A stretch of 64,000 nt of DNA from Klebsiella pneumoniae. GTDB taxonomy: Bacteria > Verrucomicrobiota > Verrucomicrobiia > Limisphaerales > SXTU01. Positions within the stretch are counted from its first letter, which is position 1, and each line of letters begins with the position of its first letter. The stretch covers positions 6,397 to 70,396 of the forward strand of contig CALQJI020000012.1 in NCBI GenBank assembly GCA_943330855.2. The letters run 5' to 3'. The notes under the pieces are model-generated. The model was not told the origin of the DNA and searched no databases. It was given only the letters and a program-made list of their open reading frames with translations. Shown piece after piece: positions 25,987 to 45,286 of the stretch. The position numbers and the translations under genes were made by a program.

Positions 25987-27228
25987 TCACCCCTCCACCA
26001 CAACCGTCACTTTCTGAATGGCATTCCGCCCGGCCTTCGCGAACGGCCTGGGCATCGGCTGGCCGTGGCCGGCGAGGTCTACGGTGCGGCAGCGGAGGTC
26101 ATACTTGCCGGGCTTCACATCGCGGAGTAGCGCGGCCCAGTGGCAGAGCGTGTAGCGCATCGGCCATTCGCGCGGCTGGCGCGTCGCGGGGTCGAACTGC
26201 GCGGGGTGCAGCCGGCTGATGTCCATTTCACCCGCCCAGTTCACGGGCAAGGGCAGGATGCGCGCTTCCTGCCAGGGCGCGGTGGTGAAGTGCGGGTCAT
26301 CCTTGGGTAGCGGCGCGTCCTGCGGGTGAAGCCAGTATTGCACCCGAGCGAGCCCGGATACGCCTACTTGCGCCTGCCCGGTGATGGCGAAGGACGTCCC
26401 GGCCTTCACCTTCTCCGGCGTGGAGACGAAGCGCGCGAAGGTCTTGAGCCAACTGTGCGTGTCGTTGTTGCCGTTGGCGTAAGTGTCGTCGGACTGGTGC
26501 TTGTTTGTGAGGACGACCTGCGTGAGCCACTTCACTGATTTGAAGCCGTAGGACTCGGGCACAATCATCCGCACCGGGCCGCCGCGCTTGCCGGTGAGCC
26601 ACTCGCCGTTGAGCTTGTAGCAGAGCATGACGGGGAGCTCGCCGGGCGGGTCTTCGAGCACGCGGTTGATGGGGAGCCAGCACTGGAAAATCTGCTTCCG
26701 GTCGTCGTTGTGGTAGCCGTGGTAGAAGACGTGGCGGATGTTTTCCTTCGGCTCCGTGAGCCAGAGCACGTCGCGCAACGGCACGCCCTCCCACAAGCCG
26801 AAGCCCAGCGGATTGAAGATGTTGTTGCAGGTGACGACCTTGAGGTAACGCACGGCCTTGGTCTCCGCGAGTTTGAGCAGGGCGTCGAAGGTGAAGGCGT
26901 TGCCAGCGGCCTTCGTGAGCGGGTTTTCCAATTTGGAATTGCTCTGCGGGTCGGCGAAGACTTCGAGTTTCCACGTGTCGCGTTCGAGTCCGACCTCGCG
27001 GCGTTTCTCCAGCGGCAGCGTGTAGGGCAGTGGCGTGCCACGCTCGACGGTGTTGAACTCCGCGTGCGGCGTCAGGCAACGCGAACCGATGCTGGCGATG
27101 GCTCGGGCGAGCACGGGGTCGTCGGCTGACGCGGCCGGCGCGAGCGACGCGCCTTGGGCGACAGCGACGCCCGCTGCGCCGAGACGCAAAAAGTCGCGAC
27201 GGGTGAAGGGGGATGAGGAGCGGGTCAT
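25987..27228 (-). CDS. Molybdopterin-dependent oxidoreductase (sulfite-oxidase fold) with Tat signal
   Basis: The twin-arginine leader is TRRDFLRLGAAGVAVA. The Moco-domain segment GGPVRMIVPESYGFKSVKWLTQVVL is present. I used the ATG at 27226-27228. Confidence 0.75.
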   Translation of the reverse strand: MTRSSSPFTRRDFLRLGAAGVAVAQGASLAPAASADDPVLARAIASIGSRCLTPHAEFNTVERGTPLPYTLPLEKRREVGLERDTWKLEVFADPQSNSKLENPLTKAAGNAFTFDALLKLAETKAVRYLKVVTCNNIFNPLGFGLWEGVPLRDVLWLTEPKENIRHVFYHGYHNDDRKQIFQCWLPINRVLEDPPGELPVMLCYKLNGEWLTGKRGGPVRMIVPESYGFKSVKWLTQVVLTNKHQSDDTYANGNNDTHSWLKTFARFVSTPEKVKAGTSFAITGQAQVGVSGLARVQYWLHPQDAPLPKDDPHFTTAPWQEARILPLPVNWAGEMDISRLHPAQFDPATRQPREWPMRYTLCHWAALLRDVKPGKYDLRCRTVDLAGHGQPMPRPFAKAGRNAIQKVTVVVEG

Positions 27229-27349
27229 GTGGTGGCTGGAACAGTCGCGTCGGCTCGTCGCGCACGTCAAGTGCTGCAGCGCCGCTCTGCTTCGGTTCCA
27301 ATCCACGCGCCTGGCTTCCCTTCGCGCTGGCTTGCTCCATACTCCCGCC

Positions 27350-28078
27350 GTGCGCATCTCCATCGTCTTGCCCGCTTTCAACGAGGAGAAACTCATCGGC
27401 GCGACCTTGCAGGCCGTTCACTCCGCGCGCGAAGCGTTCACCGCAGTCGGCTGGGAAAGCGAAGTCATCGTCTGCGACAACAACTCGACTGACCGCACCG
27501 GCGAGCTTGCACGGGCCGCGGGCGCGAAGGTGGTCTTCGAGCCGGTGAACCAAATCGCCCGCGCGCGAAACTCCGGCGCAGCGGCGGCCACGGGCGACTG
27601 GCTCGTCTTCGTGGACGCGGACTCGCACGTGAACCGCGAGCTCCTCGCCGACGTGGCGGAAGTCATTCGTGGCGGACGGCATTTGGCGGGCGGCTGCACC
27701 ATCCGCCTCGACCACGCGCCGTGGTGGACAGGGTTCTTCGTGCATGGGTGGACCACCGTGAGCCGCTTGCTGCACTGGGCCGCCGGCTCGTTCATCTTCG
27801 TCGAGGCGGCAGCGTTCCGCGCGGTCGGCGGCTTCAATCAAGCGCTCTACGCGACGGAGGAAATTGACCTGAGCCAACGCCTCAACCGCCTCGCCCGCCA
27901 ACGCAAGCTCCAGCCCCTGCGCATCCTCACGCGCCACCCGTTGCTCACCTCGGCTCGCAAGGCGCACCTCTACACGCCGTGGGAGCACGTGCGTTTCCTC
28001 TTGAAGACCGCCTTCAGCCTGGGCCGCTCGTTGGGCCACCGCGACGCCTGCCCCATCTGGTATGACGGGCGGCGGTGA
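27350..28078 (+). CDS. Family 2 glycosyltransferase
   Basis: ISIVLPAFNEEKLIG, CDNNSTD and FVDADS are GT-A motifs. I chose the GTG start at 27350; the start is uncertain. Confidence 0.7.
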   Translation: MRISIVLPAFNEEKLIGATLQAVHSAREAFTAVGWESEVIVCDNNSTDRTGELARAAGAKVVFEPVNQIARARNSGAAAATGDWLVFVDADSHVNRELLADVAEVIRGGRHLAGGCTIRLDHAPWWTGFFVHGWTTVSRLLHWAAGSFIFVEAAAFRAVGGFNQALYATEEIDLSQRLNRLARQRKLQPLRILTRHPLLTSARKAHLYTPWEHVRFLLKTAFSLGRSLGHRDACPIWYDGRR

Positions 28079-35090: not shown

Positions 35091-35258
35091 GGGGAATCGC
35101 ATTGCCCCGGCTCAGGCTTCGCGCCGCTCCCAGCCTGCGAGCACACTTTGGATCGCGCCCCGCACTTGCTCCCGCGCCTGTTGGCGGTCGCCGTGGCGCA
35201 TGGGTGTTTTCGGCCTGCGGGGAGGATTTCGGTGGTTTGCTCATGCGGGTTCGTTCGT

Positions 35259-35531
35259 TCACTCCCCCAACCGCACGATGGCCGCATACACATGACCCAT
35301 CTGGCCGCGCTCGAACCGCCCCGACAACGCCCGCATCACCGCGCCCTTGTCCCGCGTGAGTGAGAGGCCCTGCGCCCGCAGTGCCGCGTAAGCCTCGCGC
35401 ACGCCTTGCCGGAAGGCCTGCTCCGCGTTCACCTGTCGCAGCGCGTCGTCAATGTTCGCGCGGAACTTCTCGATGTCGTCCGCCTGATACTCCTCCAGCA
35501 ACAGCGGCAGGAGCGTCTCGAAGTTCAGCAC
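35259..35531 (-). CDS. Probable C-terminal continuation of the ligase-type gene in a shifted frame
   Basis: The track start is GTG with no nearby ATG. The frame is open upstream to 35639 and overlaps the tail of ORF 35449-36402. Its helical-looking sequence ...LNFETLLPLLLEEYQADDIEKFRANIDDALRQV... reads like real protein. Confidence 0.4.
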   Translation of the reverse strand: MLNFETLLPLLLEEYQADDIEKFRANIDDALRQVNAEQAFRQGVREAYAALRAQGLSLTRDKGAVMRALSGRFERGQMGHVYAAIVRLGE

Positions 35532-36402
35532 ATCCGCCGTCTCCAGCGCATTCCAGCACGTGGCGATAACGGCGACCTTTATTGATGCCCGTGGCCCAGT
35601 GGATGGCCTCCACGCTCTCCGGCTTGCACTTCCACAACGTCACGCGGCCCGACGGTTCGGTCACATACCACACCGCGCCCTCCGTGCCGGACAGCTTGTC
35701 GTCCCCCGCCGGCTGGTTCCGCCGCTCCATCTCCTCGCGGAGCGTCTGGAAACGCGCCACCGGGTCATCGCCCGCGCGCAGCTCACCGATGAGCGGCGCG
35801 ACCGGCACGCTGCCCGTCTGCAACTGAAACGGCCCCACCGACGCCGCATCCGCTGTCCGCACGCCGAAGAGCACTGCCACCGCCAGCGGCACGTCGTAGG
35901 CGATGAGATGGGCGTTGCGCGCGCCGAACATCTCGAAGCTCACATGGCAGCCGTTCGCCTCCACCAGCCCCGGCAGGTCCGGATGCCGCGCCAGCAGCTC
36001 GCGCCAGTAATCGAGGAACGGCCCCCACTTGCTGTTCCGCAGCACCGGCGAGAGCCGCAGCTTGTAGGTGAGCCGCCAGCGTCCGTCCGCGTCCGCGTAG
36101 CGATAGGCCAGCACGTTCGTCCCATCGAGCTTCTCGTAGAGGTGCGCCGACGCGATGGGCGGGAAGTGGAACCGCCCGTTCTTGCCGAAGGGATAATGCA
36201 GCTTGGGCGTGGCGAAGATGCGCTGCGGCGCAGGCCGCCCGTCCACGCGCAGCAACGCCAGCCCGCCGTAAGTGTGGTTCGGCTTCTGGCAGAGAAACCC
36301 CTCCAGCCGCACCTCGTCATTGAACGGGTCGGTCACATCGAACGGTTGGAGAAACTTCGCGTCCACGCCCAGTAGTTCGGCGGCTTGTTCGAGGTCGGTC
36401 AT
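35449..36402 (-). CDS. RNA-ligase-type covalent nucleotidyltransferase (KxDG), apparently frameshifted near its 3' end
   Basis: The motif set occurs in canonical order: I YEKLDGTN (nt 36115-36135), III-like SFEMFG, IV EGAVWY and V TLWKCKP. I used the ATG at 36400-36402 (MTDLEQ). The last ~40 codons are Arg/Gly-rich and look out of frame. Confidence 0.7.
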   Translation of the reverse strand: MTDLEQAAELLGVDAKFLQPFDVTDPFNDEVRLEGFLCQKPNHTYGGLALLRVDGRPAPQRIFATPKLHYPFGKNGRFHFPPIASAHLYEKLDGTNVLAYRYADADGRWRLTYKLRLSPVLRNSKWGPFLDYWRELLARHPDLPGLVEANGCHVSFEMFGARNAHLIAYDVPLAVAVLFGVRTADAASVGPFQLQTGSVPVAPLIGELRAGDDPVARFQTLREEMERRNQPAGDDKLSGTEGAVWYVTEPSGRVTLWKCKPESVEAIHWATGINKGRRYRHVLECAGDGGCAELRDAPAAVAGGVSGGRHREVPREH

Positions 36403-36482
36403 GTGCTGACTTTGCCATCCGAGAATTGTTCCCGAAAGCCAATAACCGGACCACCAGCAGCGGCGCAACTGCCCCGTGCCAC

Positions 36483-37373
36483 TCACCCCGGCGGCCAGCC
36501 CTTCGGCTCGCGGCCGAAAACCGCCTCATAGGCCCGCACCGTTGACGGTGGCGGACAGTCCATGGCCTCACGGCGAGATTGCTCGTTGCCCTCGGCCAGT
36601 TCCGCGCGGACGCGCTCCAGTTCCTCCTGCCGCTCCTTCGCCTCCTGCTCCTTCGCGAACGCCTCCGACGGCGAGTAGTCCTCCGGCTTCTGCTTCTCCA
36701 ACGCGTCCCGCAGCGGCGACAAGTCCACCAACCCCACCTCAGGAAAATGATATTCCCAATCCGCGCCCAGCGATTTAATCCGGCGGAACACCATCCGATA
36801 CACGGGCGTCAGGTCGGTGCGCTCGTGAATGCCCGAACACGAAATCCACGACGTGCCCATGTAAAAGCGCAGATAGTCCCCATTCCACCACTCATCCATC
36901 TGGCCATCCAAGTAGCTGGCCAAGAATCCGCCGGCGGCCCGAAACGATCCGATGTCCACCACCCGGCCGGGCCCCGTGATGATCTCATGATTGTCCGAGA
37001 ACACGTCCCACAAACACCGTCCCACCAGTTCCGTCACTTCGGCCAAAGCGTCCACCGGTGCCTCGGTCCAATCCGCCGACACCTCTTCCAACGTGGGCGC
37101 TGGTGTTGGTGCCAGCTTCGGATTGTCCGGCTCGCGCTCGCGCCGGATGCGGATCAACTCCTCGAGGTTCCGGTGCATCCGCAAGGACTCCTGGAACACC
37201 TGCTCCGCCGACGGGTGGAAGCACGCCAGCAACGGCGACTTCTCCCAACCCTCCGGCGCAAGCTCCCCCAGCACGTCCGCCCCGGCGAAGCCGTGCGGAA
37301 ACAGCCGGTCAAAAAACGCCTTCAACTCGGCGTCGGTCAGGCGGTTGGTTTGCTCATGGTCCATGATTGGCAT
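36483..37373 (-). CDS. Hypothetical protein (296 aa), no family recognised
   Basis: The ATG at 37371-37373 overlaps the end of the JetD-like gene by 20 nt. Codon usage is protein-like and the C-terminal part is acidic coiled coil (EAFAKEQEAKERQEELERVRAELAE). Confidence 0.55.
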   Translation of the reverse strand: MPIMDHEQTNRLTDAELKAFFDRLFPHGFAGADVLGELAPEGWEKSPLLACFHPSAEQVFQESLRMHRNLEELIRIRREREPDNPKLAPTPAPTLEEVSADWTEAPVDALAEVTELVGRCLWDVFSDNHEIITGPGRVVDIGSFRAAGGFLASYLDGQMDEWWNGDYLRFYMGTSWISCSGIHERTDLTPVYRMVFRRIKSLGADWEYHFPEVGLVDLSPLRDALEKQKPEDYSPSEAFAKEQEAKERQEELERVRAELAEGNEQSRREAMDCPPPSTVRAYEAVFGREPKGWPPG

Positions 37374-38244
37374 CTTCGATCTGCGACTTGGTTTCGGACG
37401 CCAACAGCAATGCCTCCTGCTCCAGGCCGGCGTTGTGCTCGCTGATCAAATGGACGACCTGGCGCACTTCGCTGGAGTCGCTGGTTCGCAAGCGGGTGAG
37501 CAGGGATTGAGATGGGGAGTTGGCCAGTAACTCGCGCTTGGAGAAGCGGCGGAAGAGTTCCGGCAACTGCGTTGGCAGATGAAGCCGCGCTCGCGACCCC
37601 AGCCGCGCTCGCACACGCTCGAACTCATCGAGGCCAGTCGGGTCGTAGTCGGGAAGATGCCAGAGCTGGAACGCCCCGTCGGTCTGCGCCCCCAGCCAGT
37701 CGAGCAGACGATTCGAGCCGCGTCCCCGTCCGTGGATGGCCAGTGTCACCGCCAGCCCCAAAGATTCCACGGCGAGAAAGACCGCCGGGTTCTCGACCAA
37801 TGCACAGGTGCCATGCAGCGACCACGCGGGCGTTTCTCCGAGCGCAAAGGAAAACACGCCGTTCCGCTCCGTCGCCAGTGCCGCCTCCGCATCCTTGCCA
37901 TCGCGTCGCAGGACGCCGGATGCGAAGCAGCGCACGCAGACGATTTCGGGCGTGTCGTTGGCAAGCGCCTTTGAGTCGCGAAAGCGGGCGACTCCGGTGA
38001 CGCGGGCAGACGCATTTCCGGGTGTGCCTGATTCCGGGAACTCGATTCGTCGGAACGCTCGCAGTGCCGCCACGTCTCGCACTACCAGCCGCCGGCCCGC
38101 TCTGGAACGCTCCTCGACCACCACGCTGCCCTGGATCAAAGGCTTCAGCGCCTGGAGTAACGACCCGCTGCACTCGGAACGCGGCAGTGAACCCCGCTCC
38201 AGCAGCGCGTCCAATCGCGCGCAGATGTTCTCCCGCGCCGTCAT
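37354..38244 (-). CDS. Toprim-domain protein resembling the Wadjet JetD / MksG C-terminal (DUF2220-like) domain
   Basis: CALVENPAVFLAV (Toprim Glu) and WHLPDYDPTGLDEF (DxD) have the spacing seen in JetD-type Toprim domains. The ATG overlaps the stop of the SMC-like gene (ATGA). Confidence 0.6.
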   Translation of the reverse strand: MTARENICARLDALLERGSLPRSECSGSLLQALKPLIQGSVVVEERSRAGRRLVVRDVAALRAFRRIEFPESGTPGNASARVTGVARFRDSKALANDTPEIVCVRCFASGVLRRDGKDAEAALATERNGVFSFALGETPAWSLHGTCALVENPAVFLAVESLGLAVTLAIHGRGRGSNRLLDWLGAQTDGAFQLWHLPDYDPTGLDEFERVRARLGSRARLHLPTQLPELFRRFSKRELLANSPSQSLLTRLRTSDSSEVRQVVHLISEHNAGLEQEALLLASETKSQIEDANHGP

Positions 38245-40937
38245 GCCGTGGCTGCGCGCTTCACGCCCACTCGATGTTTGTTGCGAAGCACGATTCGTCC
38301 CTGCTGCGGCTGGAGAAAATAGAGCGCGTCCACTTCGCTCACCGCTTCAGGCGCGGCCGTGATGGCGATGAAACCGAGCTGTCGCGCGGTGCTCAGAATG
38401 GCGTGGCGGTTGGCCGGGTCGAGCGTCTGGATTTCGTCGAGGAAGAACGGCACCGCGCAGTCGTCGCGCCGCAACTGAGCTTTCAAGAGCAGGAGATTGA
38501 ACAGCACCTTGATGGTGATAGTCGTGCCGTGCGATTCGATTTGCCGGAAGTCGTGGTAGGTGTGCCGCCGGTCGTCCGCGCCCGTCACGGTGAAGCCGAG
38601 AGTGAACAGGTCGGCGAAACGGATAACCGGATTGCCCTCCAGCTTGCTGCGAAAGTTCGCGATGGCGGATTCCTGCATTGGGTCGTGGTCAAATAATCCT
38701 CCCGGTTGGAAGGCCGCCAGACGCTCAATCCAACTCACATAGTCGCTATTCTTCAGCACTTCCAGTTTGATCACTTTCAGGTTGGAGACGCGCACCTTGG
38801 CGAAGGCACGGTTAAGATCGGTGGCGGCACCCGCGACGTGGTCGAGATTCTTCAGCACGAGGTCGAACGTCGCCTTCAGCCCGTGCAGGTGCGCGTTCCA
38901 ATCGCGAGCCAGCGCGTCCTCCTTCTCCACCAGCGCGTCGAGTTCGCCCCGCAGGTTCGCGACCGTTTCACCTTCCTCGTGTCCGTGGAACTCGTCGCCA
39001 AACCACCGCTCCGTTTCGGCGAGCAGGTTCGCGATCTCGTCGCTCAACTTCTCCTGCTTATCCTGCTGGCGTCGGAACAGCGCGATGGCGGCGTCGAAGT
39101 CATCCGGGATGCCGTCCCCCACGACGGCCTTGCGGGAGAAATCCGGCTGGATGCACAGATTGAAGCGGCCCATGACCGCGTTGAACTCATCCTCCGCTTT
39201 GCGAATCGCGCCCTCCGCCTCGGCTTTCGCCTTCTCCGCAGTCCTGCCTTGCGCCGTGAGTTTGCTGATGCGCTCGCTGGCTGCGGCAATGGTGTCGGTG
39301 ATTTTCTTCAACTCGGCACGCAGGAGCGGCTCCTCGGCTTTGGACCGCTGGTATTCCTCGAAGCGGAAAACCAGTTTAGCCTTCGCGTCGTGCGTGGCGC
39401 GCTTGGTTTTCACTTCCGCCACAAGTTTCTCGCGCTGCTCAACGGCCGAAAGGATGCCCGTCCAGCGGCGGAGCGTCTCCGCGTATTCCTTGAGCAGCTC
39501 GCGGGCAGCTTCGACGTTTTCCAGTCCCACGAGCGGTGTGCGGCCGGAAGTAAGGGGAATCGTGACGTCCGCATCCCGATAGCAGCCACCTGAAACACGG
39601 GCCAGCAAGGCACGGAGCGCGGCCAGCAGTTCCCGCTCCCGCGTCACCTCGATGCCGTCCCGGCCCACCGCCAACTCCAGCAGGTCCGGGTTCAACAGGC
39701 GGAAGAGGAGGTTCAGTTCGTCATCGCTGAAGTGCCGCCGCAGCACGGTGACGGCGAGCTTGTCGAAGCGAGCGATGGTCTGCTCCTTCTGTTTCACCAG
39801 GCCGCCGTAGTGGTCGAGTTTCCTTTTTGCCTGTTCCCGAGACTCACCCTCAGCATTGGCAAGCTGGTTTTCCAGACCCCGAATGTCGTTCTGGAGATTC
39901 GACAGCGCGGCTCGCTCCAACTCCTCGACAAAACCGGCAAACTCCTTGTCCTGCCCCGCCAGCGCGTCCAGCCGGGTGGTGAATCCGCCCTTCTGCTCCG
40001 AGAAGGTGTTCACGTCGGCACGCCGGTCAGTCAGTTCTTCCTCGGCTTGCTTCAGCAGTCCGGCTTGCTTGGCGGCTGCCTCGCGCGAACGCACCAGCGC
40101 CGCCTCGTGTTCCTGCTCAAACCGCTGCTTCTTCCCGCTCAAGTCCATCCACCGCCAGACGAGTTCGCCGCGTGCCGTCTCGCGTTCGGCGAACTTGGTC
40201 ACGAGCTTCTCCACCAACGATTTGTTCTTTTTGAAGTTCTCGAACTGACGGCGGCGCTCCCGGATGCGGTCGTAGTCGTCGCCGAACAGCGCGCGGGCGT
40301 CGAGCGCGGTGCGGTCGGGCGGAATGTCGGCGAGCATCAGCAGCCCGTCACGCATCTGCTTTTGGGTGATGGCACTCAGGGAGAGCAGGTTCTTCAGCGT
40401 CTCGCGGAACAGATGATACTTGTCGCTGTCGCGCAACGAGACGATGCCAAGGCCACGCGCGTCGCCGCCGACGGGCGGGAGCAGCAGTTCGCGATGCTCC
40501 TGCGCGCTCTTGAGCACGCGCAGTTGCCGGAGCGCGAGGCGGGCGTTCACCTCGTTAGGTTCGCGGACCTGATTCCGCTCATCTAGGAAGTCCGTCACGT
40601 CGAAGGGACCGAGGTGACAGAATCGCTCCGGTTCGCCGCCGCTGGTCTTGCTCTGCCCGCGCCAGCCGACGACGCACTGGCCGGTCACGCCGAGGCACTC
40701 GAAGAGGACGTAGCTGTATTGGCCGGGAAAATAGAACTCGCGCGTCTGCTCCGGCGTGTAGGAGCCAAAGTTCATGTGCCCGCGGTCGTCGAGGTAGAGG
40801 AACTGGAGCGTGTTGATGAGCGTGGTCTTGCCCGTGTTGTTCTGCCCGACAATCTGGAGCGTGCCGGCCAGTTCGACCTCCGCGTATTCGTAGCGGCCGG
40901 ACTGGAGGAGGATGAGGCGTTGCGGGCCGGTGGGCAT
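38241..40937 (-). CDS. SMC/Rad50-like ABC ATPase with long coiled coil (JetC/MksB-like)
   Basis: The N-terminal P-loop is GQNNTGKTT. About 600 aa of heptad-rich E/K/R/L/A sequence follow. The C-terminal Walker B is VPFFLDEIQTLD. The protein is 898 aa. Confidence 0.7.
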   Translation of the reverse strand: MPTGPQRLILLQSGRYEYAEVELAGTLQIVGQNNTGKTTLINTLQFLYLDDRGHMNFGSYTPEQTREFYFPGQYSYVLFECLGVTGQCVVGWRGQSKTSGGEPERFCHLGPFDVTDFLDERNQVREPNEVNARLALRQLRVLKSAQEHRELLLPPVGGDARGLGIVSLRDSDKYHLFRETLKNLLSLSAITQKQMRDGLLMLADIPPDRTALDARALFGDDYDRIRERRRQFENFKKNKSLVEKLVTKFAERETARGELVWRWMDLSGKKQRFEQEHEAALVRSREAAAKQAGLLKQAEEELTDRRADVNTFSEQKGGFTTRLDALAGQDKEFAGFVEELERAALSNLQNDIRGLENQLANAEGESREQAKRKLDHYGGLVKQKEQTIARFDKLAVTVLRRHFSDDELNLLFRLLNPDLLELAVGRDGIEVTRERELLAALRALLARVSGGCYRDADVTIPLTSGRTPLVGLENVEAARELLKEYAETLRRWTGILSAVEQREKLVAEVKTKRATHDAKAKLVFRFEEYQRSKAEEPLLRAELKKITDTIAAASERISKLTAQGRTAEKAKAEAEGAIRKAEDEFNAVMGRFNLCIQPDFSRKAVVGDGIPDDFDAAIALFRRQQDKQEKLSDEIANLLAETERWFGDEFHGHEEGETVANLRGELDALVEKEDALARDWNAHLHGLKATFDLVLKNLDHVAGAATDLNRAFAKVRVSNLKVIKLEVLKNSDYVSWIERLAAFQPGGLFDHDPMQESAIANFRSKLEGNPVIRFADLFTLGFTVTGADDRRHTYHDFRQIESHGTTITIKVLFNLLLLKAQLRRDDCAVPFFLDEIQTLDPANRHAILSTARQLGFIAITAAPEAVSEVDALYFLQPQQGRIVLRNKHRVGVKRAATA

Positions 40938-40955
40938 TGGGGGTTTTTGGATTTA

Positions 40956-40981
40956 CGATTAGCGATTAGCGATTAGCGATT
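40956..40981. repeat. Tandem heptamer array (CGATTAG)x~3.7 at the junction of the small gene and the SMC-like gene
   Basis: Read directly. It contains the TAA stop of gene 40966-41529 and lies 19-44 nt upstream of the ATG at 40937. Confidence 0.9.
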
Positions 40982-41529
40982 TCGGACTGAGCCGTGTCGG
41001 GCGCGGCCGTCGCCGCCTGTCCGGTTTGGGCGAGTTCGAGGCACTTGGTGAACACGCGGTGGAACGGGCGCAGGAAACGGAATTCCTCGTCCCCGAGCCA
41101 TTTCACCCAGCCGATGCGCTCCATGTGCTTGAGCAGGTTTTCGACATCCTTGAGGTCATGCACCTTCACCTGACGCAGCAGCGCCGAGTAGCGGTCGAGC
41201 GTGAAATGCGGCAGCATCGTGAGCAGGAAGTTTTGCCCGAAGATGAATTCCTCGATCGGCCGGCCCTGATTCGCCGCGTGGTCAATGAGGATGTAGGAAA
41301 ACACCGCGATGCGCGGCAGCGTGTCGGGCACGGTCTCCGGATTGTCCGGCTCAAGGTAGAAGAACTCGCGCTCGTGGCGGACGAGCTTGAGGCCGAGCGC
41401 GTCGAATTGCGCGGTGTAGTCGTCGAAGCGCGCCGCCAGCGTGGAGAACTCGGGCTCGTCGTCCGGGCCGAGATGGTAGCCGCGCCGGAGCCGGTCGAAG
41501 ATGAGCGCGAGATGCGGGAGGGAGTTCAT
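40966..41529 (-). CDS. Small (187 aa) protein in the JetB/MksE (KITE-like) position
   Basis: The call rests on position only: it lies between the putative kleisin and the SMC-like ATPase, has a 4-nt overlap with the upstream gene, and its size and helical/WH-like composition fit. No motif was verified. Confidence 0.4.
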   Translation of the reverse strand: MNSLPHLALIFDRLRRGYHLGPDDEPEFSTLAARFDDYTAQFDALGLKLVRHEREFFYLEPDNPETVPDTLPRIAVFSYILIDHAANQGRPIEEFIFGQNFLLTMLPHFTLDRYSALLRQVKVHDLKDVENLLKHMERIGWVKWLGDEEFRFLRPFHRVFTKCLELAQTGQAATAAPDTAQSEIANR

Positions 41530-42749
41530 ACGGAGACGAGTTGGACGGGGGCAGCTACGAGCGAACCGTCGGCAGTCGGGTAGGCGCGCGGCACGCGGTT
41601 GGTGAAGGCCGCTTGAAAGCGCGGGTCGAAGACCAACTCGCCGAAACCGGCAAGCACTTGGCCCGTGTCCTTGCCCGGATGCCCCTCGACGAGCCAGCCG
41701 AGCAAATCTTCCAAAGGCAGCGAGGGCAGCACTCGTTCCGGCAACGAATCGAGCCAGAGGCGGCGCACGAGCGCGTCCGGCGCGGCTTCCTCGGCGGCGA
41801 ACTCCAGCACCGGCGGCGGCTCCGGCGGGTGTTCGATGACGCGTCGCAAGGCCAGCGCGATGGCCCCGTCACCGGGCACGTGCTGAAACCGCAGGGCGCA
41901 CACGCTGATGAGCGGCTCGCTGCCCCACTTGGCGATGCCTTCGCTTTGGAGTTTCTCCAGCGCGCGGGCCGCGCCCTCGGCGATGGCACTGGAGCGGCGC
42001 AAGGATTCGTAGAGCGGCTGAATCTCCTTGCGGCATTGTGTGAAGACCCGCAGCGCGTGGTCGCGGACGAGCCGAAGGAAGCGGAGGTTGCGCGCGAGGG
42101 CCGGATGGTCGTTGAACAGCGCCTCGTCGCGGGCGCGTCCGAGCAACCGCTCGGTGTCGTCGAAGGCCGCGCGCAGCGGCCCCTCGCGGTTGACGATGCC
42201 AATCATCGGCTCCACGTAACGCTCCATCCAGTGAACGATGCGTCGGAACTTCTCGCGCACGGACACGCGAGAACGCTCGGTCTTGAAACGCCCGATCTCG
42301 ATGAGAATGGCGTGCTGAGTTTCGTCGAGGTCAGCCTGAATGCGCCGGAGAGTCAGGCTGATTTCCTCGAAGGCCCGTTTCACCTGCGCGACATCCTCCT
42401 CGTCGAGCCCGCGGGCGAGGCACTTGCAAGTCGTTTCGAGCGAGAGCACGTAGCCGCCAATCATCTCTGGCGTGGCGGGATTCGCCTCATTGAACAAATA
42501 CGTGAGCAACCGCGCCACCGGCTCGGCAAGAAAGCAGAGTTCGCTCCCCGGCTCGGTAGGCACGAGGATTTGCAACTCACGCAAGCGCCGCCAAGCCGTC
42601 TCCGACAGCTCCTCGCCTGTGCCTGGATACGCGCGGATGAGCCGCAGCGCATCCGACTCGGATATTTCCCTTTCGTGCTCCGCCAGCGCGTGCAACAGCG
42701 GCCCATGCTGGGCGCAGAAGTTGAAGAAACTTTGCGGGTTGATTTTCAC
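41526..42749 (-). CDS. 407-aa helical protein in the JetA/MksF (kleisin-like) position
   Basis: First gene of the operon, with a GTG start at 42747-42749. The assignment is by gene order and size only. Confidence 0.4.
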   Translation of the reverse strand: MKINPQSFFNFCAQHGPLLHALAEHEREISESDALRLIRAYPGTGEELSETAWRRLRELQILVPTEPGSELCFLAEPVARLLTYLFNEANPATPEMIGGYVLSLETTCKCLARGLDEEDVAQVKRAFEEISLTLRRIQADLDETQHAILIEIGRFKTERSRVSVREKFRRIVHWMERYVEPMIGIVNREGPLRAAFDDTERLLGRARDEALFNDHPALARNLRFLRLVRDHALRVFTQCRKEIQPLYESLRRSSAIAEGAARALEKLQSEGIAKWGSEPLISVCALRFQHVPGDGAIALALRRVIEHPPEPPPVLEFAAEEAAPDALVRRLWLDSLPERVLPSLPLEDLLGWLVEGHPGKDTGQVLAGFGELVFDPRFQAAFTNRVPRAYPTADGSLVAAPVQLVSV

Positions 42750-42786
42750 TTGTCGCTCAACGTCAGGCTGCGGTCATTCCGGCCAG

Positions 42787-42873
42787 TCACAGCACCTGTT
42801 TCTTGAACCAGGCTTTCACTTCCTTGAAGTGGAAGTCGAGCGAGCGGGGCGGGGCTATCTCGCTGGGCTTCAT
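42787..42873 (-). pseudogene. Displaced duplicate of the purB 3' end (remnant)
   Basis: Nt 42787-42843 align with the real purB end at 43596-43652, roughly 47 of 57 identical by hand alignment. The remnant encodes ...[18 protein letters not shown] versus purB ...[18 protein letters not shown]. Confidence 0.7.
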
Positions 42874-43028
42874 GGCTTGAGGGCGACGACTTTGCCGTCC
42901 TGCCAGACGTAGATGGGGGTGCCGTGGGCGCGGGCGGTCTTGCGCGCGGCCTGCCCGGCGCGGCGCAGGGCGCGGCCTGCGGGGGTGAGGCGGAGCTTCG
43001 GGCGGGGGGCTTGGTTGGTTCGGTTCAT
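42870..43028 (-). CDS. Small basic protein (52 aa) coupled to the zeta-like ATPase
   Basis: MNRTNQAPRPKLRLTPAGRALRRAGQAARKTARAHGTPIYVWQDGKVVALKP. Its ATG overlaps the ATPase stop (ATGA), and its own stop overlaps the ATG of the purB remnant. It is too short to appear in the ORF track. Confidence 0.45.
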   Translation of the reverse strand: MNRTNQAPRPKLRLTPAGRALRRAGQAARKTARAHGTPIYVWQDGKVVALKP

Positions 43029-43540
43029 GGGCCTATCTCCAGCAGTTCCGGCATCTGCCGCGAATTGTCATACACTTCCCACAGGTCAGCAAGCGGGCGG
43101 TAGGTGTTTTGGAAATTGTCCCAGCCGCGCACGTAGCGGCGCAGGACGTCGGCACGCGGGACGTTGTGCCCGCCCTGTTTCACGCGGGCGGCGATGCGGC
43201 GGAGCGCCAGTAGGGGCGAATGCAGGCGCAGGAAAATGATCTCTATCCGGTAGCCGGCGGCTTTCCACCGCTGCAATCGCCCCACATACCCCAGCCCGCT
43301 CAGGGTGGTTTCAAAGGCGAAATCGGTCCGCGCCTTCGCGAGGCGGTCCAACTCCGACAGCAGCAGCCGTCCGCCCGCAAGCGAGGCCAGCTCGGGCCGC
43401 AACGGCGACAGTCCGGCAGCGATGAGGTCGGCGTTCACGAAACGAATCACGCCCGCGTCCTTCGGTAGGTATTCCCGCGCGAAGGTTGTCTTACCCGCGC
43501 CGTTCGGCCCGGCGATGACGATGCAGCGGGGAGTTTTCAT
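43025..43540 (-). CDS. Zeta-toxin-like P-loop kinase/ATPase (171 aa)
   Basis: Walker A lies in IVIAGPNGAGKTTFAREYL. ...FAFETTLSG... and ...GGHNVPRADVLRRY follow, the typical zeta/AAA_33-like pattern. Confidence 0.8.
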   Translation of the reverse strand: MKTPRCIVIAGPNGAGKTTFAREYLPKDAGVIRFVNADLIAAGLSPLRPELASLAGGRLLLSELDRLAKARTDFAFETTLSGLGYVGRLQRWKAAGYRIEIIFLRLHSPLLALRRIAARVKQGGHNVPRADVLRRYVRGWDNFQNTYRPLADLWEVYDNSRQMPELLEIGP

Positions 43541-43595
43541 GCGTGCGAACTCGTGTCTAGTCGTGGTTGCGGTTTCCGCCTCCTTACGTCGGCGG

Positions 43596-44930
43596 TTACA
43601 GCCCCAGTTTCTTGAACCGCGCTTTGACTTCCTTGAAGTGGAAGTCGAGGGAGCAGAGGGCTTCGAGTTCGCCTTTCTTGAAGTGCTTGGCGACTTCGGG
43701 ATTGGCTTGGAGTTGCGCGACGAAGTTGGCGTCGTCGCGGCCGGCGTGCTTGACCTCCCAGGTTTTCATCGCGGCGTCCTGGCAGAGTTTGTAGGCGGCT
43801 TCGCGGGTCAGGCCTTTGCAGATGAGCGCGAGGAGGATGGTCTGGCTGTTCCACATGCCCAGCGAGAGGCCGAGGTTCTTCTTCATGTTCGCGGGATAGA
43901 CCACGAGGCCGTCCATCAGGCGCGTGAGCAGGCCGAACATGTAGTCGAGCAGCGTGCAGGAGTCGGGGAAGATGATGCGCTCGACGCTGCTGTGGCTGAT
44001 GTCGCGCTCGTGCCAGAGGGCGACGTTTTCCAGCGCGGCGACGGCGTTGCCGCGCAGGACGCGGGCGAGGCCGGTGAGGCGTTCCCAGGTGATGGGGTTG
44101 CGCTTGTGCGGCATGGCGCTGCTGCCTTTCTGGCCGATGGTGAAGGCTTCTTCGGCTTCGAGGACTTCGGTGCGCTGGAGGTGGCGGAACTCGACGGCCC
44201 AGCGCTCGATGCTCGCGCCGACGAGCGCCATCGTGAGTTGAAACTCGGCGTGGATGTCGCGCTGGACGACTTGCGTGGCGATGGGCGCGGGGCGCAGGCC
44301 AAGTTTTTTGCAGACGTAGGCTTCGACGCGTGGTGAAAGGTGCGCGCTCGTGCCGACGGCACCGGAGACCTTGCCGACGGCGACGACTTCTCGGACGCGC
44401 TCCAACCGCTCCAGCGCGCGGCCGAACTCGTCATACATCAGCGCGAGCTTCAGCCCGAAAGTCGTCGGCTCCGCGTGGATGCCGTGGCTGCGGCCGATGC
44501 AGGGGGTGAACTGATGCTCCTTCGCGCGCTTGGCGAGGGCGGCGCGCACCGTCTTCACGTCGGCGATGAGGATGTCCGCGCTCTGGACCATCTGCACGCC
44601 GTAGCAGGTGTCGCCCACGTCACTGCTGGTGAGGCCGAAGTGGAACCAGCGGCTGGCGGGGTCGTTGATCTTCTCCGCGACGGCGGTGGTGAAGCCGATC
44701 ACGTCGTGGTTGAGCACTTTCTCCAGTTCCTTCTGCCGCGCCACGAGTCCGGGCAGGTCGGCGAACCACGCGTTGCAGCCGGCTTTGAGTTTGGCGAAAT
44801 CCTGCTTCGGCACGATGCGCTCCTTCACGAGGGCCTCGCTGGCGAGGAGTTCGATTTGGAGCCAGAGCTTGAGCTTGTTTTCGTCGGTCCAGATGGCCCG
44901 CATTTCAGGACGGGAGTAGCGCGTAATCAT
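43596..44930 (-). CDS. purB: Adenylosuccinate lyase
   Basis: [19 protein letters not shown]... and the [10 protein letters not shown] signature loop are present. 444 aa. Confidence 0.95.
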
Positions 44931-44943
44931 TGGGGCCTAGGAG

Positions 44944-44978
44944 AAAGGCAAAAGGCGAAAGGCGAAAGGCAAAAGGGG
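44944..44978. repeat. Tandem heptamer array (AAAGGCR)x5 in the purB 5' leader
   Basis: Read directly: aaaggca aaaggcg aaaggcg aaaggca aaagggg. It lies 14-48 nt upstream of the purB ATG. Confidence 0.9.
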
Positions 44979-45286
44979 AGCGATGACGAGTGCTGGAAAG
45001 TTTTCACTCGGACAGCGGATGTCCAACCCGCCGCGCAACACTCGCGCCATGAAACAACTCCTCTCGGCGTGGGTGAACACAGGTGAAGTGCTGGCAAACT
45101 TCGGCTCGGCGACGCTTCGCCGCCATCGCGACGGTCGCTATGAACTGCACGGCGGCACGCCTGCGGACCGCGCGGACGCGTTGGAATGGGCTTCGCTCTT
45201 TCAGCACGACGCGGTGTTCTCCCACCGGCCTGACCGCGCGCGCTCGGCCCTTCCCGCGCCGTCGCCGCGCTGGTAGGTTCGCCCGC

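Follow-up and report, generated by a model that had tools for sequence, protein, structure and literature searches.

The question raised by this locus is how a second copy of the 3' end of a housekeeping gene came to lie downstream of that gene, on the far side of two small genes. The gene is purB, encoding adenylosuccinate lyase, and the locus is part of contig CALQJI020000012.1 from an uncultured lake Verrucomicrobium. The whole stretch of 64,000 nt that was analyzed is called the window here, and L-numbers denote the related genomes and contigs compared with it. The two small genes encode a zeta-toxin-like protein (zeta) and a 52-aa protein (p52). Behind them follow the displaced piece of purB (the remnant) and a Wadjet-like operon. 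The initial annotation read this arrangement as a site-specific element that had integrated into the purB 3' end. Our analysis suggests that the remnant is probably a recombination scar in an integrase-free hotspot directly 3' of purB, and not the far attachment (att) site of a self-contained integrative element. All genes concerned (purB, zeta, p52, the remnant open reading frame (ORF) and the Mks/Jet operon) are carried on the minus strand, and the main features are as follows.

43596..44930, minus strand: intact purB (adenylosuccinate lyase), 444 aa (Pfam Lyase_1 9e-48, ADSL_C 3e-15)
43595..43654, minus strand: resident repeat copy, the last 19 purB codons plus the stop (repeat search)
43541..43595, minus strand: spacer of 55 nt between purB and zeta (read directly from the sequence)
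43025..43540, minus strand: zeta/PezT-like P-loop protein, 171 aa, short form (Pfam Zeta_toxin and predicted fold)
42870..43028, minus strand: p52, 52-aa basic partner protein (ATGA overlap with zeta)
42787..42873, minus strand: purB 3' remnant, ORF of 28 codons whose ATG overlaps the p52 stop (repeat and profile search)
42879..43337, minus strand: recombination tract (3' two-thirds of zeta, and p52), about 93% identical to L169 (mismatch map)
35203..42868, minus strand: strain-variable segment of 7,666 nt with the remnant, MksB-, MksE- and MksF-like genes, a JetD-like gene and two function-unknown genes (absent from the near-identical L169)
37354..42749, minus strand: Wadjet-like operon (Pfam, NCBIfam and precomputed Pfam matches)
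35112..35202, minus strand: orphan DUF2293 3' end, about the last 30 codons (joint compared with the intact L169 gene)

The purB 3' end and its displaced copy

The duplication of the purB 3' end around a two-gene cassette was confirmed by repeat and profile searches. The repeat search aligned 42786-42845 with 43595-43654 (60 nt, 53/60 identical, 88%). Over the 57-nt span that had been aligned by hand in the initial annotation the count was 50/57, slightly better than the 47/57 given there, and the two encoded C-terminal peptides were as it had stated. A profile built from the last 120 nt of purB in 77 genomes gave no more than two matches in the 64-kb window, one being purB itself (E 3.8e-31) and the other 42850-42788 (E 7.9e-13). 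The entire structure was covered with 0 differences by independent 9.4-kb contigs of two public runs of lake water, and an identical gene order was present on 12 contigs of the protein index. The duplication is therefore not an assembly artefact, a concern that had been raised with the first description of the locus, and 42787-42845 can be regarded as a true relic of the purB 3' end.

The remnant differs from purB by three non-synonymous and two synonymous substitutions and by a change of the stop codon. The resident purB C-terminal peptide is the same as in the relative L001, and purB as a whole is 84-98% identical to the purB of metagenome-assembled genomes (MAGs) of Pedosphaerales/Limisphaerales. 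An attempt to decide which copy is the original by its distance to the purB ends of relatives was not decisive, the resident copy having 5 differences from L001 and the remnant 7 from L024 and 8 from L001.

The layout between the copies was also as first described. Zeta starts 55 nt after the purB stop, zeta and p52 are the only genes between the two copies, and ATGA overlaps chain zeta to p52 and p52 to the remnant ORF. The remnant stop lies close to the Wadjet operon as claimed, the spacer to the GTG of the first Wadjet gene being 37 nt rather than 38. The 55-nt spacer behind purB contains a small stem-loop, CCGCC-N10-GGCGG (43576-43595), which is followed by a CACGA-rich motif. This motif is natively located 3' of the purB stop in many relatives, with CACGAAT in the cassette-free L021, L039, L057, L063 and L070, and the stem-loop also occurs 3' of purB in L023, L059 and L082. 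A consensus scan of the 55 nt between purB and zeta detected no promoter-like or terminator-like site, and the locus was found in no RNA run. The modules behind purB may be promoterless and rely on purB transcription or read-through.

Small stem-loops resembling repetitive extragenic palindromes were found directly 3' of the purB stop (or of a remnant) in several genomes with differing cargo, with the types CCGCCGACGTRAGGAGGCGG and CCCTCTCCGCCTCGAACGGGGAGAGGG. The window, L023, L059 and L082 share the first hairpin type and L081, L083, L102, L027 and L044 have the other; neither is followed by a T-run.

Three alleles behind p52 in near-identical strains

The comparison with near-identical strains located the variable DNA behind p52. 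L169 1-6672 matches window 49540-42869 at 98.2%, ending one base past the p52 stop, and L169 7285-12516 matches window 35202-29971 at 99.2%. Between these matches the window has 7,666 nt and L169 has 612 nt. These 612 nt belong to an intact DUF2293 gene (235 aa), of which they are the 5' part and which is coupled to p52 by ATGA. Only about the last 30 DUF2293 codons are retained in the window, behind a clean breakpoint with at most 1 nt of microhomology, and this truncated gene indicates that the window state is the derived one. L169/L170 and L177-L179 share the upstream synteny of the window and keep purB-zeta-p52; they have neither the remnant nor the Mks-type Wadjet. In L177-L179 a canonical JetA-JetB-JetC-JetD operon occupies the slot after p52. 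Compared with L177, the variable part of the window is 36404-42868, its left edge being the p52 stop and its right edge exactly the start of a 317-aa gene. One species accordingly carries three alleles, each starting exactly at the p52 stop with the ATG overlapping the TGA.

Allele 1, from window 42869: purB remnant and Mks-type Wadjet (window)
Allele 2, from L169:6672: intact DUF2293 gene (L169/L170)
Allele 3, from L177:7675: canonical JetABCD Wadjet (L177-L179)

The mismatches between L169 and the window were unevenly distributed, with 2 across purB (>99.8% identity) against 31 in 43337-42879 (about 93%). The divergent tract begins inside zeta, and no such tract was found on the right side of the imported segment. 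Thus a donor-type divergent anchor tract ends at a crossover (31 vs 2 mismatches), and at the other end an illegitimate joint is accompanied by loss of recipient DNA (612 nt replaced). One-sided mismatches together with a DUF2293 joint with deletion are the signature of homology-facilitated illegitimate recombination (HFIR), that is, of a homologous crossover in zeta combined with an illegitimate joint. HFIR has been proposed for the orphan 3' fragments in type VI secretion system (T6SS), Rhs and CdiA arrays (Kirchberger et al., 2017, PMC5361080); among the HFIR papers cited there are de Vries and Wackernagel (2002), Prudhomme et al. (2002) and Meier and Wackernagel (2003).

Judged from these alignments, purB-zeta-p52 is the constant part in this species and the DNA after p52 is swapped, remnant included. 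The cassette is accordingly the older resident, and the remnant came in with the Wadjet tract. This is at odds with the cassette as the mobile unit, as it had been taken to be in the initial annotation: the strain-variable unit is the remnant plus Wadjet, and the divergent tract in zeta and the truncated DUF2293 gene mark the window as the recipient. A search of related genomes for empty sites had been proposed, and the near-identical strains instead keep the cassette and are without the remnant and this Wadjet; no site differing exactly by the DNA between the repeats was found in L169 or L177, both of which retain the cassette. No cassette-excision joint was detected in the assembled contigs of the DNA runs. 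A read joint 42845->43697 was considered as an excision product and rejected, since it belongs to a contig of another strain (90% identity), and the purB end of that strain is closer to the remnant. The ancestral order had been given as purB followed directly by the Wadjet operon. Such an arrangement does exist in L039, where jetA starts 35 nt 3' of the purB stop and the sequence is collinear with the remnant, spacer and jetA of the window at about 80%, but L169/L170 and L177-L179 speak against an insertion of the cassette into it in this lineage.

We propose that promoterless, co-oriented modules, such as toxin-antitoxin (TA)-like pairs, Wadjet variants and other cargo, would accumulate behind purB in this Verrucomicrobia clade and would be exchanged through homologous recombination of the RecA type, with purB or resident modules as the anchor. 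The other end would sometimes be closed by an illegitimate joint (HFIR), and a joint capturing or leaving a piece of purB would place a 3' fragment downstream of the cargo. For this lineage the strain comparison shows that purB-zeta-p52 came first. A tract with the 3' part of zeta, p52, the remnant, the Mks-type Wadjet and more genes was then acquired from a diverged relative, by a crossover inside zeta and an illegitimate joint that removed the first 612 nt of the DUF2293 gene. The founding p52|purB(-86) joint may have had a single origin in an older ancestor, by a similar event. The remnant could also act as a homology pad at which purB-adjacent islands (e.g. the purB-Wadjet of L039) recombine in with zeta-p52 retained. 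The ATGA couplings at the module boundaries may reflect selection for compact, translationally coupled operon-like arrays and not a cutting site.

Several points weigh against this proposal. The polarity between the window and L169 rests on the truncated DUF2293 gene and the one-sided tract only, and a replacement by two crossovers in the L169 lineage is still conceivable. For the founding event behind the shared p52|remnant junction, a left-anchored displacement of the resident 3' end, which was the geometry first suggested, and an import of the donor 3' end would give identical structures. The exact start of every allele at the p52 stop, by way of an ATGA overlap, could hint at a site-specific step rather than compaction. 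The integrase screen of purB relatives described below shows only families with at least two members among ORFs of 230-520 aa within a reach of 6 kb. In addition, HFIR would require that these uncultured bacteria take up foreign linear DNA, by competence or another route.

Turnover behind purB and recurrence of the zeta-p52 pair

The flank of purB was compared in 80 of about 600 purB loci of the order, all from MAGs of the Pedosphaerales/Limisphaerales type. The DNA 3' of the purB stop was different in almost every one of the 80 relatives. Seven of them (L005, L020, L023, L041, L052, L054 and L059) had one or two extra same-strand copies of the purB 3' end downstream. Overall, such copies of 43-190 nt were detected behind purB with unrelated cargo in at least 14 related genomes, the copies being those of L005 (two), L020, L023, L041, L052, L054, L059, L081-L084, L096, L097, L102 (two) and L175. 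The cargo between copies included the following.

L023 and L054, truncated in L059: AbiEii pair
L020 and L052: 23S-IVP four-helix protein and other genes
L041: Ser/Thr kinase and FGE-sulfatase protein
L005: membrane protein, then a 5'-truncated zeta-p52

An amidase and membrane proteins were also among the cargo flanked by purB 3' copies, and an HsdS-containing region and AbiE likewise occupy the purB-adjacent position in relatives. A literature search on purB hotspots returned nothing specific.

The zeta-p52 pair itself lies directly behind purB in L072, L081, L082, L083, L085, L096, L097, L102, L155 and L175/L176. A purB remnant comes after the pair in L081 (degenerate), L082, L083, L084, L096, L097, L102 and L175, and is missing in L072, L085, L155, L169 and L177. 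For the zeta cassette alone, at least three classes of remnant can be told apart by their junctions.

Class A (window, L081-L084, L005): remnant beginning at one shared purB position, immediately at the p52 stop
Class B (L096, L175): remnant beginning with 'VAKHF'
Class C (L097, L102): remnant beginning with purB Met388, which lies about 190 nt from the stop

The palindrome CACTTC-AAG-GAAGTG is present in every remnant. The class A genomes L081-L084 and L005 carry downstream genes other than those of the window, and since the joint is shared despite these different genes, the joint itself is older.

Two-cassette arrays were observed behind purB in L005 (7335-8951) and L102 (70-1959), with a separate purB 3' copy at the end of each cassette; in L005 a truncated zeta gene is joined, at its codon ~94, directly to the first remnant. 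In L084 (2911-4782) the purB-flank motif, zeta, p52 and remnant stand behind a panE-like (2-dehydropantoate reductase-like) gene, the 4 kb upstream contain no purB, and this unit was apparently relocated whole, remnant included.

Copies of the cassette behind other genes, which had been proposed as something to look for, were indeed found. In three other Verrucomicrobia the pair lies 1-18 nt after the stop of guaB (IMP dehydrogenase) with a common convergent downstream gene. In L098 (4923-5727) the guaB 3' end recurs behind the pair (55 nt, 98%), and in L100 (3632-4304) and L103 (4999-5672) there is no such copy. In a gammaproteobacterial MAG (L135:3460-4400) a 55%-identical zeta homologue and a small gene stand behind dapD, and the dapD 3' end is duplicated around them (66 nt, 85%). 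A single att-specific recombinase would hardly account for repeats of variable length, for more than one junction and for more than one target gene. The interpretation first given to the cassette, that of a site-specific element, is not supported.

Other surroundings of the module were also seen. In a Gallionella (L153:4481-5762) the 5' part of an SRPBCC-type gene is duplicated on either side of a zeta homologue (220 nt, 97%), so that a gene start and not a gene end is repeated. In Syntrophobacteraceae, Deltaproteobacteria and Binatia (L113:2018-7190, L119:3280-5810 and L110:3635-4949) zeta-p52 lies between copies of the palindromic repeat TCATTTCGACGTTTCGAGAATTCTCGAAACGTGGAAGT, which occurs up to 6 times in 10 kb in a cassette-array-like manner and has no resemblance to classical attC.

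The assignment of the first gene as zeta-toxin-like was borne out. It matched PF06414 with 41 bits against a cutoff of 22.3 (1.9e-10; profile positions 79-164 of 199 covered). Its AlphaFold model (predicted local distance difference test score, pLDDT, 86) gave PezT (2p5t) and zeta (3q8x/1gvn) as the best Foldseek matches in the PDB (TMq 0.72-0.78, probability 1.00), and the next fold matches were polynucleotide kinases and AvrRxo1. A sequence search against PDB chains gave P-loop matches only and nothing more specific. The family has >8000 homologues, named 'zeta toxin family protein' or 'predicted ABC-type ATPase', and plasmid-borne copies are annotated as zeta toxin family protein. No epsilon/PezA antitoxin gene was present 5' of zeta, where the upstream gene is purB.

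For p52 no family was obtained from scans with Pfam, NCBIfam, PADLOC or PHROGs. Its 127 homologues are all about 52 aa long and all annotated 'hypothetical'. It is located 3' of zeta in nearly all relatives with a zeta of at least 65% identity, and the pairing spans Verrucomicrobiota, Delta-, Beta- and Gammaproteobacteria, Binatia, Nitrospirota and Flavobacteriales. On the Synechocystis plasmid pSYSG and a Legionella plasmid the p52 position is taken by a 59-64-aa gene. On pSYSG (L161, 2348-5845) the zeta family gene and a 59-aa gene lie between an HsdS/nucleotidyltransferase pair and a DUF4433/macro-domain (DarT/DarG-like) pair, surroundings that have the appearance of a defence neighbourhood. 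PADLOC and PHROGs scans of zeta, p52 and the two unknown island genes gave nothing specific, and a literature search on COG4185 found no papers. Zeta-p52 is a two-gene module that is conserved and horizontally mobile, with a TA-like organisation in which the partner is downstream and unrelated to epsilon/PezA. It may behave as a putative addiction/defence-type or TA-like pair.

Other explanations and comparison with known systems

A Campbell-type insertion-duplication is an unlikely but conceivable origin of the structure. A circle consisting of a purB 3' fragment, its flank, zeta and p52 would enter by a single RecA crossover at the purB 3' end, leave an intact purB with a 5'-truncated copy on the far side, and be re-excisable via the two copies. 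The architecture is exactly as expected from such an event, and so are the characteristic remnant start for each cargo type, the arrays of L005 and L102 in which each of two cassettes ends in a purB copy, and the purB-flank motif 5' of zeta even in L084, where a panE-like gene takes the upstream position. However, no circular or excised form was seen, the sole read joint belonging to the purB of a different strain, and near-identical strains differ by the remnant plus Wadjet and not by a cassette between repeats. The remnant-free cassettes and the gain of guaB or dapD fragments by a circle would also be left unexplained.

It is likewise doubtful that zeta-p52 and other cargo form an integrase-free cassette system in which the purB, guaB and dapD 3'-end copies are portable recombination sites analogous to attC. 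If so, promoterless addiction or defence cassettes would insert, stack and swap behind a stop codon, riding on the transcription of the gene, and an addiction module would select recombinants anchored at the remnant and not at the gene. The resemblance to integron arrays lies in promoterless, co-oriented cassettes, each ending in a repeat copy, behind a fixed entry point. Unlike in integrons, the repeat is a coding 3' end. It showed no attC-like single-strand structure beyond that of shuffled sequences (z -0.8 to -1.1, both strands, both copies), and no IntI was found in the Pfam scans or in the screen of downstream ORFs.

Of rather low probability is the model implied by the initial annotation, a decayed or non-autonomous site-specific element resembling a cis-mobilisable element (CIME), with the purB copies as attL and attR and a tyrosine or serine recombinase encoded elsewhere. 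Direct repeats of a gene 3' end are the classic signature of integrase islands, the palindrome in every remnant would suit a recombination site, and all alleles start exactly at the p52 stop. Nevertheless, Pfam scans of the cassette and its neighbours detected no integrase, as had been stated at first, and among 138 ORFs that follow purB in relatives no integrase family was represented at least twice (ORFs of 230-520 aa within 6 kb; singletons could be hidden). An att core of fixed extent was not observed, the remnants being 43-190 nt long with at least three classes for the same cargo and some cassettes having no remnant. The same cargo lies behind guaB and dapD with duplications of those genes' own ends, the strain comparison gave the signatures of a homologous tract and an illegitimate joint, and the repeat is devoid of an attC-like single-strand structure (z about -1).

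That the remnant is kept for a function, either as a translated 28-aa peptide or as a coupling or regulatory link from p52 translation to the Wadjet operon, is very improbable. An open frame with an ATGA-coupled start is present in the window, L082, L083 and L084, and the position of the purB stop is kept. On the other hand, L005 has a frameshift in the ORF and L081 a truncated form of it, the remnant is absent from L072, L085, L155, L169 and L177, three of the five coding changes in the window are non-synonymous, and the flanking genes would be functional without it in the sister strains. Chance similarity or an assembly artefact, which only the short repeat length would favour, can practically be dismissed in view of the profile E-value of 7.9e-13 with two matches only in 64 kb, the 0 differences among independent contigs from several runs and the recurrence of the structure in many genomes.

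A recombination scar in an integrase-free hotspot finds its closest parallel in the orphan arrays of Rhs, CdiA and T6SS. There too an intact gene is followed by cargo and displaced 3' pieces, arrays grow by repeated events with no integrase, and one homologous anchor is combined with one illegitimate joint, both of which are seen in the window. In contrast, what is repeated here comes from the gene of a housekeeping enzyme (purB, and elsewhere guaB and dapD) and not of a polymorphic toxin, the cargo is TA-like or defence-related and does not consist of immunity genes, and the 3' fragment is conserved and not variable. With integrase islands and CIMEs at the 3' ends of protein or tRNA genes the locus shares direct repeats of the gene 3' end around foreign DNA, an intact target and tandem accretion. 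It differs from them in that no integrase was found at the site in the genomes examined, repeat length is not fixed, junctions differ, and the segment that varies between strains is not the one bounded by the repeats.

Defence-island hotspots between conserved core genes have been described, e.g. in E. coli (Hochhauser et al., 2023, PMC10121019). As in the hotspots described there, differing defence systems occupy one position, in this case the Mks-type Wadjet, JetABCD, AbiE and an HsdS-containing region. In contrast to that description, the position here abuts the purB stop, the modules are co-oriented and often ATGA-coupled, and several carry purB 3' scars. Zeta shares with epsilon/zeta and PezAT the P-loop kinase fold, the Walker A motif, PezT/zeta as its best structural matches and plasmid-borne relatives. 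It is shorter, 171 aa vs about 240-290 aa, and its partner is a 52-aa gene downstream instead of an upstream epsilon/PezA.

The less ordinary feature is the recurrence of one zeta-family pair at the stop codons of purB, guaB and dapD, in many cases together with a duplicated gene end. The locus offers a view, resolved to single breakpoints, of how defence and TA-like modules may turn over at a hotspot in natural lake populations without a dedicated mobile-element enzyme, through a homologous crossover inside a resident module and an illegitimate joint. It also cautions that a duplicated gene 3' end is not always an att site. The zeta pair behind purB, guaB and dapD constitutes a data set with which to ask if conserved gene ends are landing pads for islands, and which role is played by a module that is widespread and uncharacterised.

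The genes of the strain-variable segment were assigned as follows.

41526-42749, minus strand: MksB-like (NCBIfam below cutoff; precomputed PF28010)
40966-41529, minus strand: MksE (Pfam MksE 5e-30)
38241-40937, minus strand: MksF (NCBIfam below cutoff; precomputed PF28007)
37354-38244, minus strand: JetD-C-like (Pfam JetD_C 1.4e-5, 25 bits vs cutoff 22)
36483-37373, minus strand: gene of unknown family, 3' of the JetD-like gene and co-oriented
35449-36402, minus strand: 317-aa gene of unknown family, co-oriented

A Wadjet/MksBEFG gene set (MksB/JetA, MksE/JetB, MksF/JetC-like and JetD) is therefore present in one operon. The NCBIfam condensin MksB, MksE and MksF matches were all under their cutoffs, and the PADLOC matches were weak. 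The GC content of the island is 0.61-0.67, the same as in the flanks, and this undistinct composition gives no independent support for a foreign origin beyond a donor of the same clade. The 317-aa gene is common to the Mks-type and JetABCD alleles, homology restarting precisely at its start, and by eye only, its product has an EKLDGTN stretch resembling the KxDG motif of nucleotidyl-transferases/ligases.

In the relatives, L039 (7371-8882) carries an Mks-type Wadjet with an internal deletion of about 2.1 kb compared with the window, by which the 5' part of jetA/mksB is fused to the middle of jetC/mksF. In L083 (5761-7884), L085 (957-3113) and L102 (1960-4107) a different Wadjet type comes after the zeta cassette, encoding a JetA-like protein of about 495 aa and a JetB-like protein of 211 aa, so that a zeta cassette beside a Wadjet is a recurrent neighbourhood; a purB remnant lies between the two in L083 and L102 and not in L085. 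Genes directly 3' of purB on the opposite strand in L002 (7357-8664) and L004 (7360-8628) correspond to window 25987-27396, about 16 kb from purB. Their placement suggests that the variable region behind the window purB may extend well past the Wadjet operon. On the other side of the gene, the purB leader just 5' of the purB start contains a 21-nt tandem repeat at 44939-44979, AGGNGAAAGGCAAAAGG on the plus strand.

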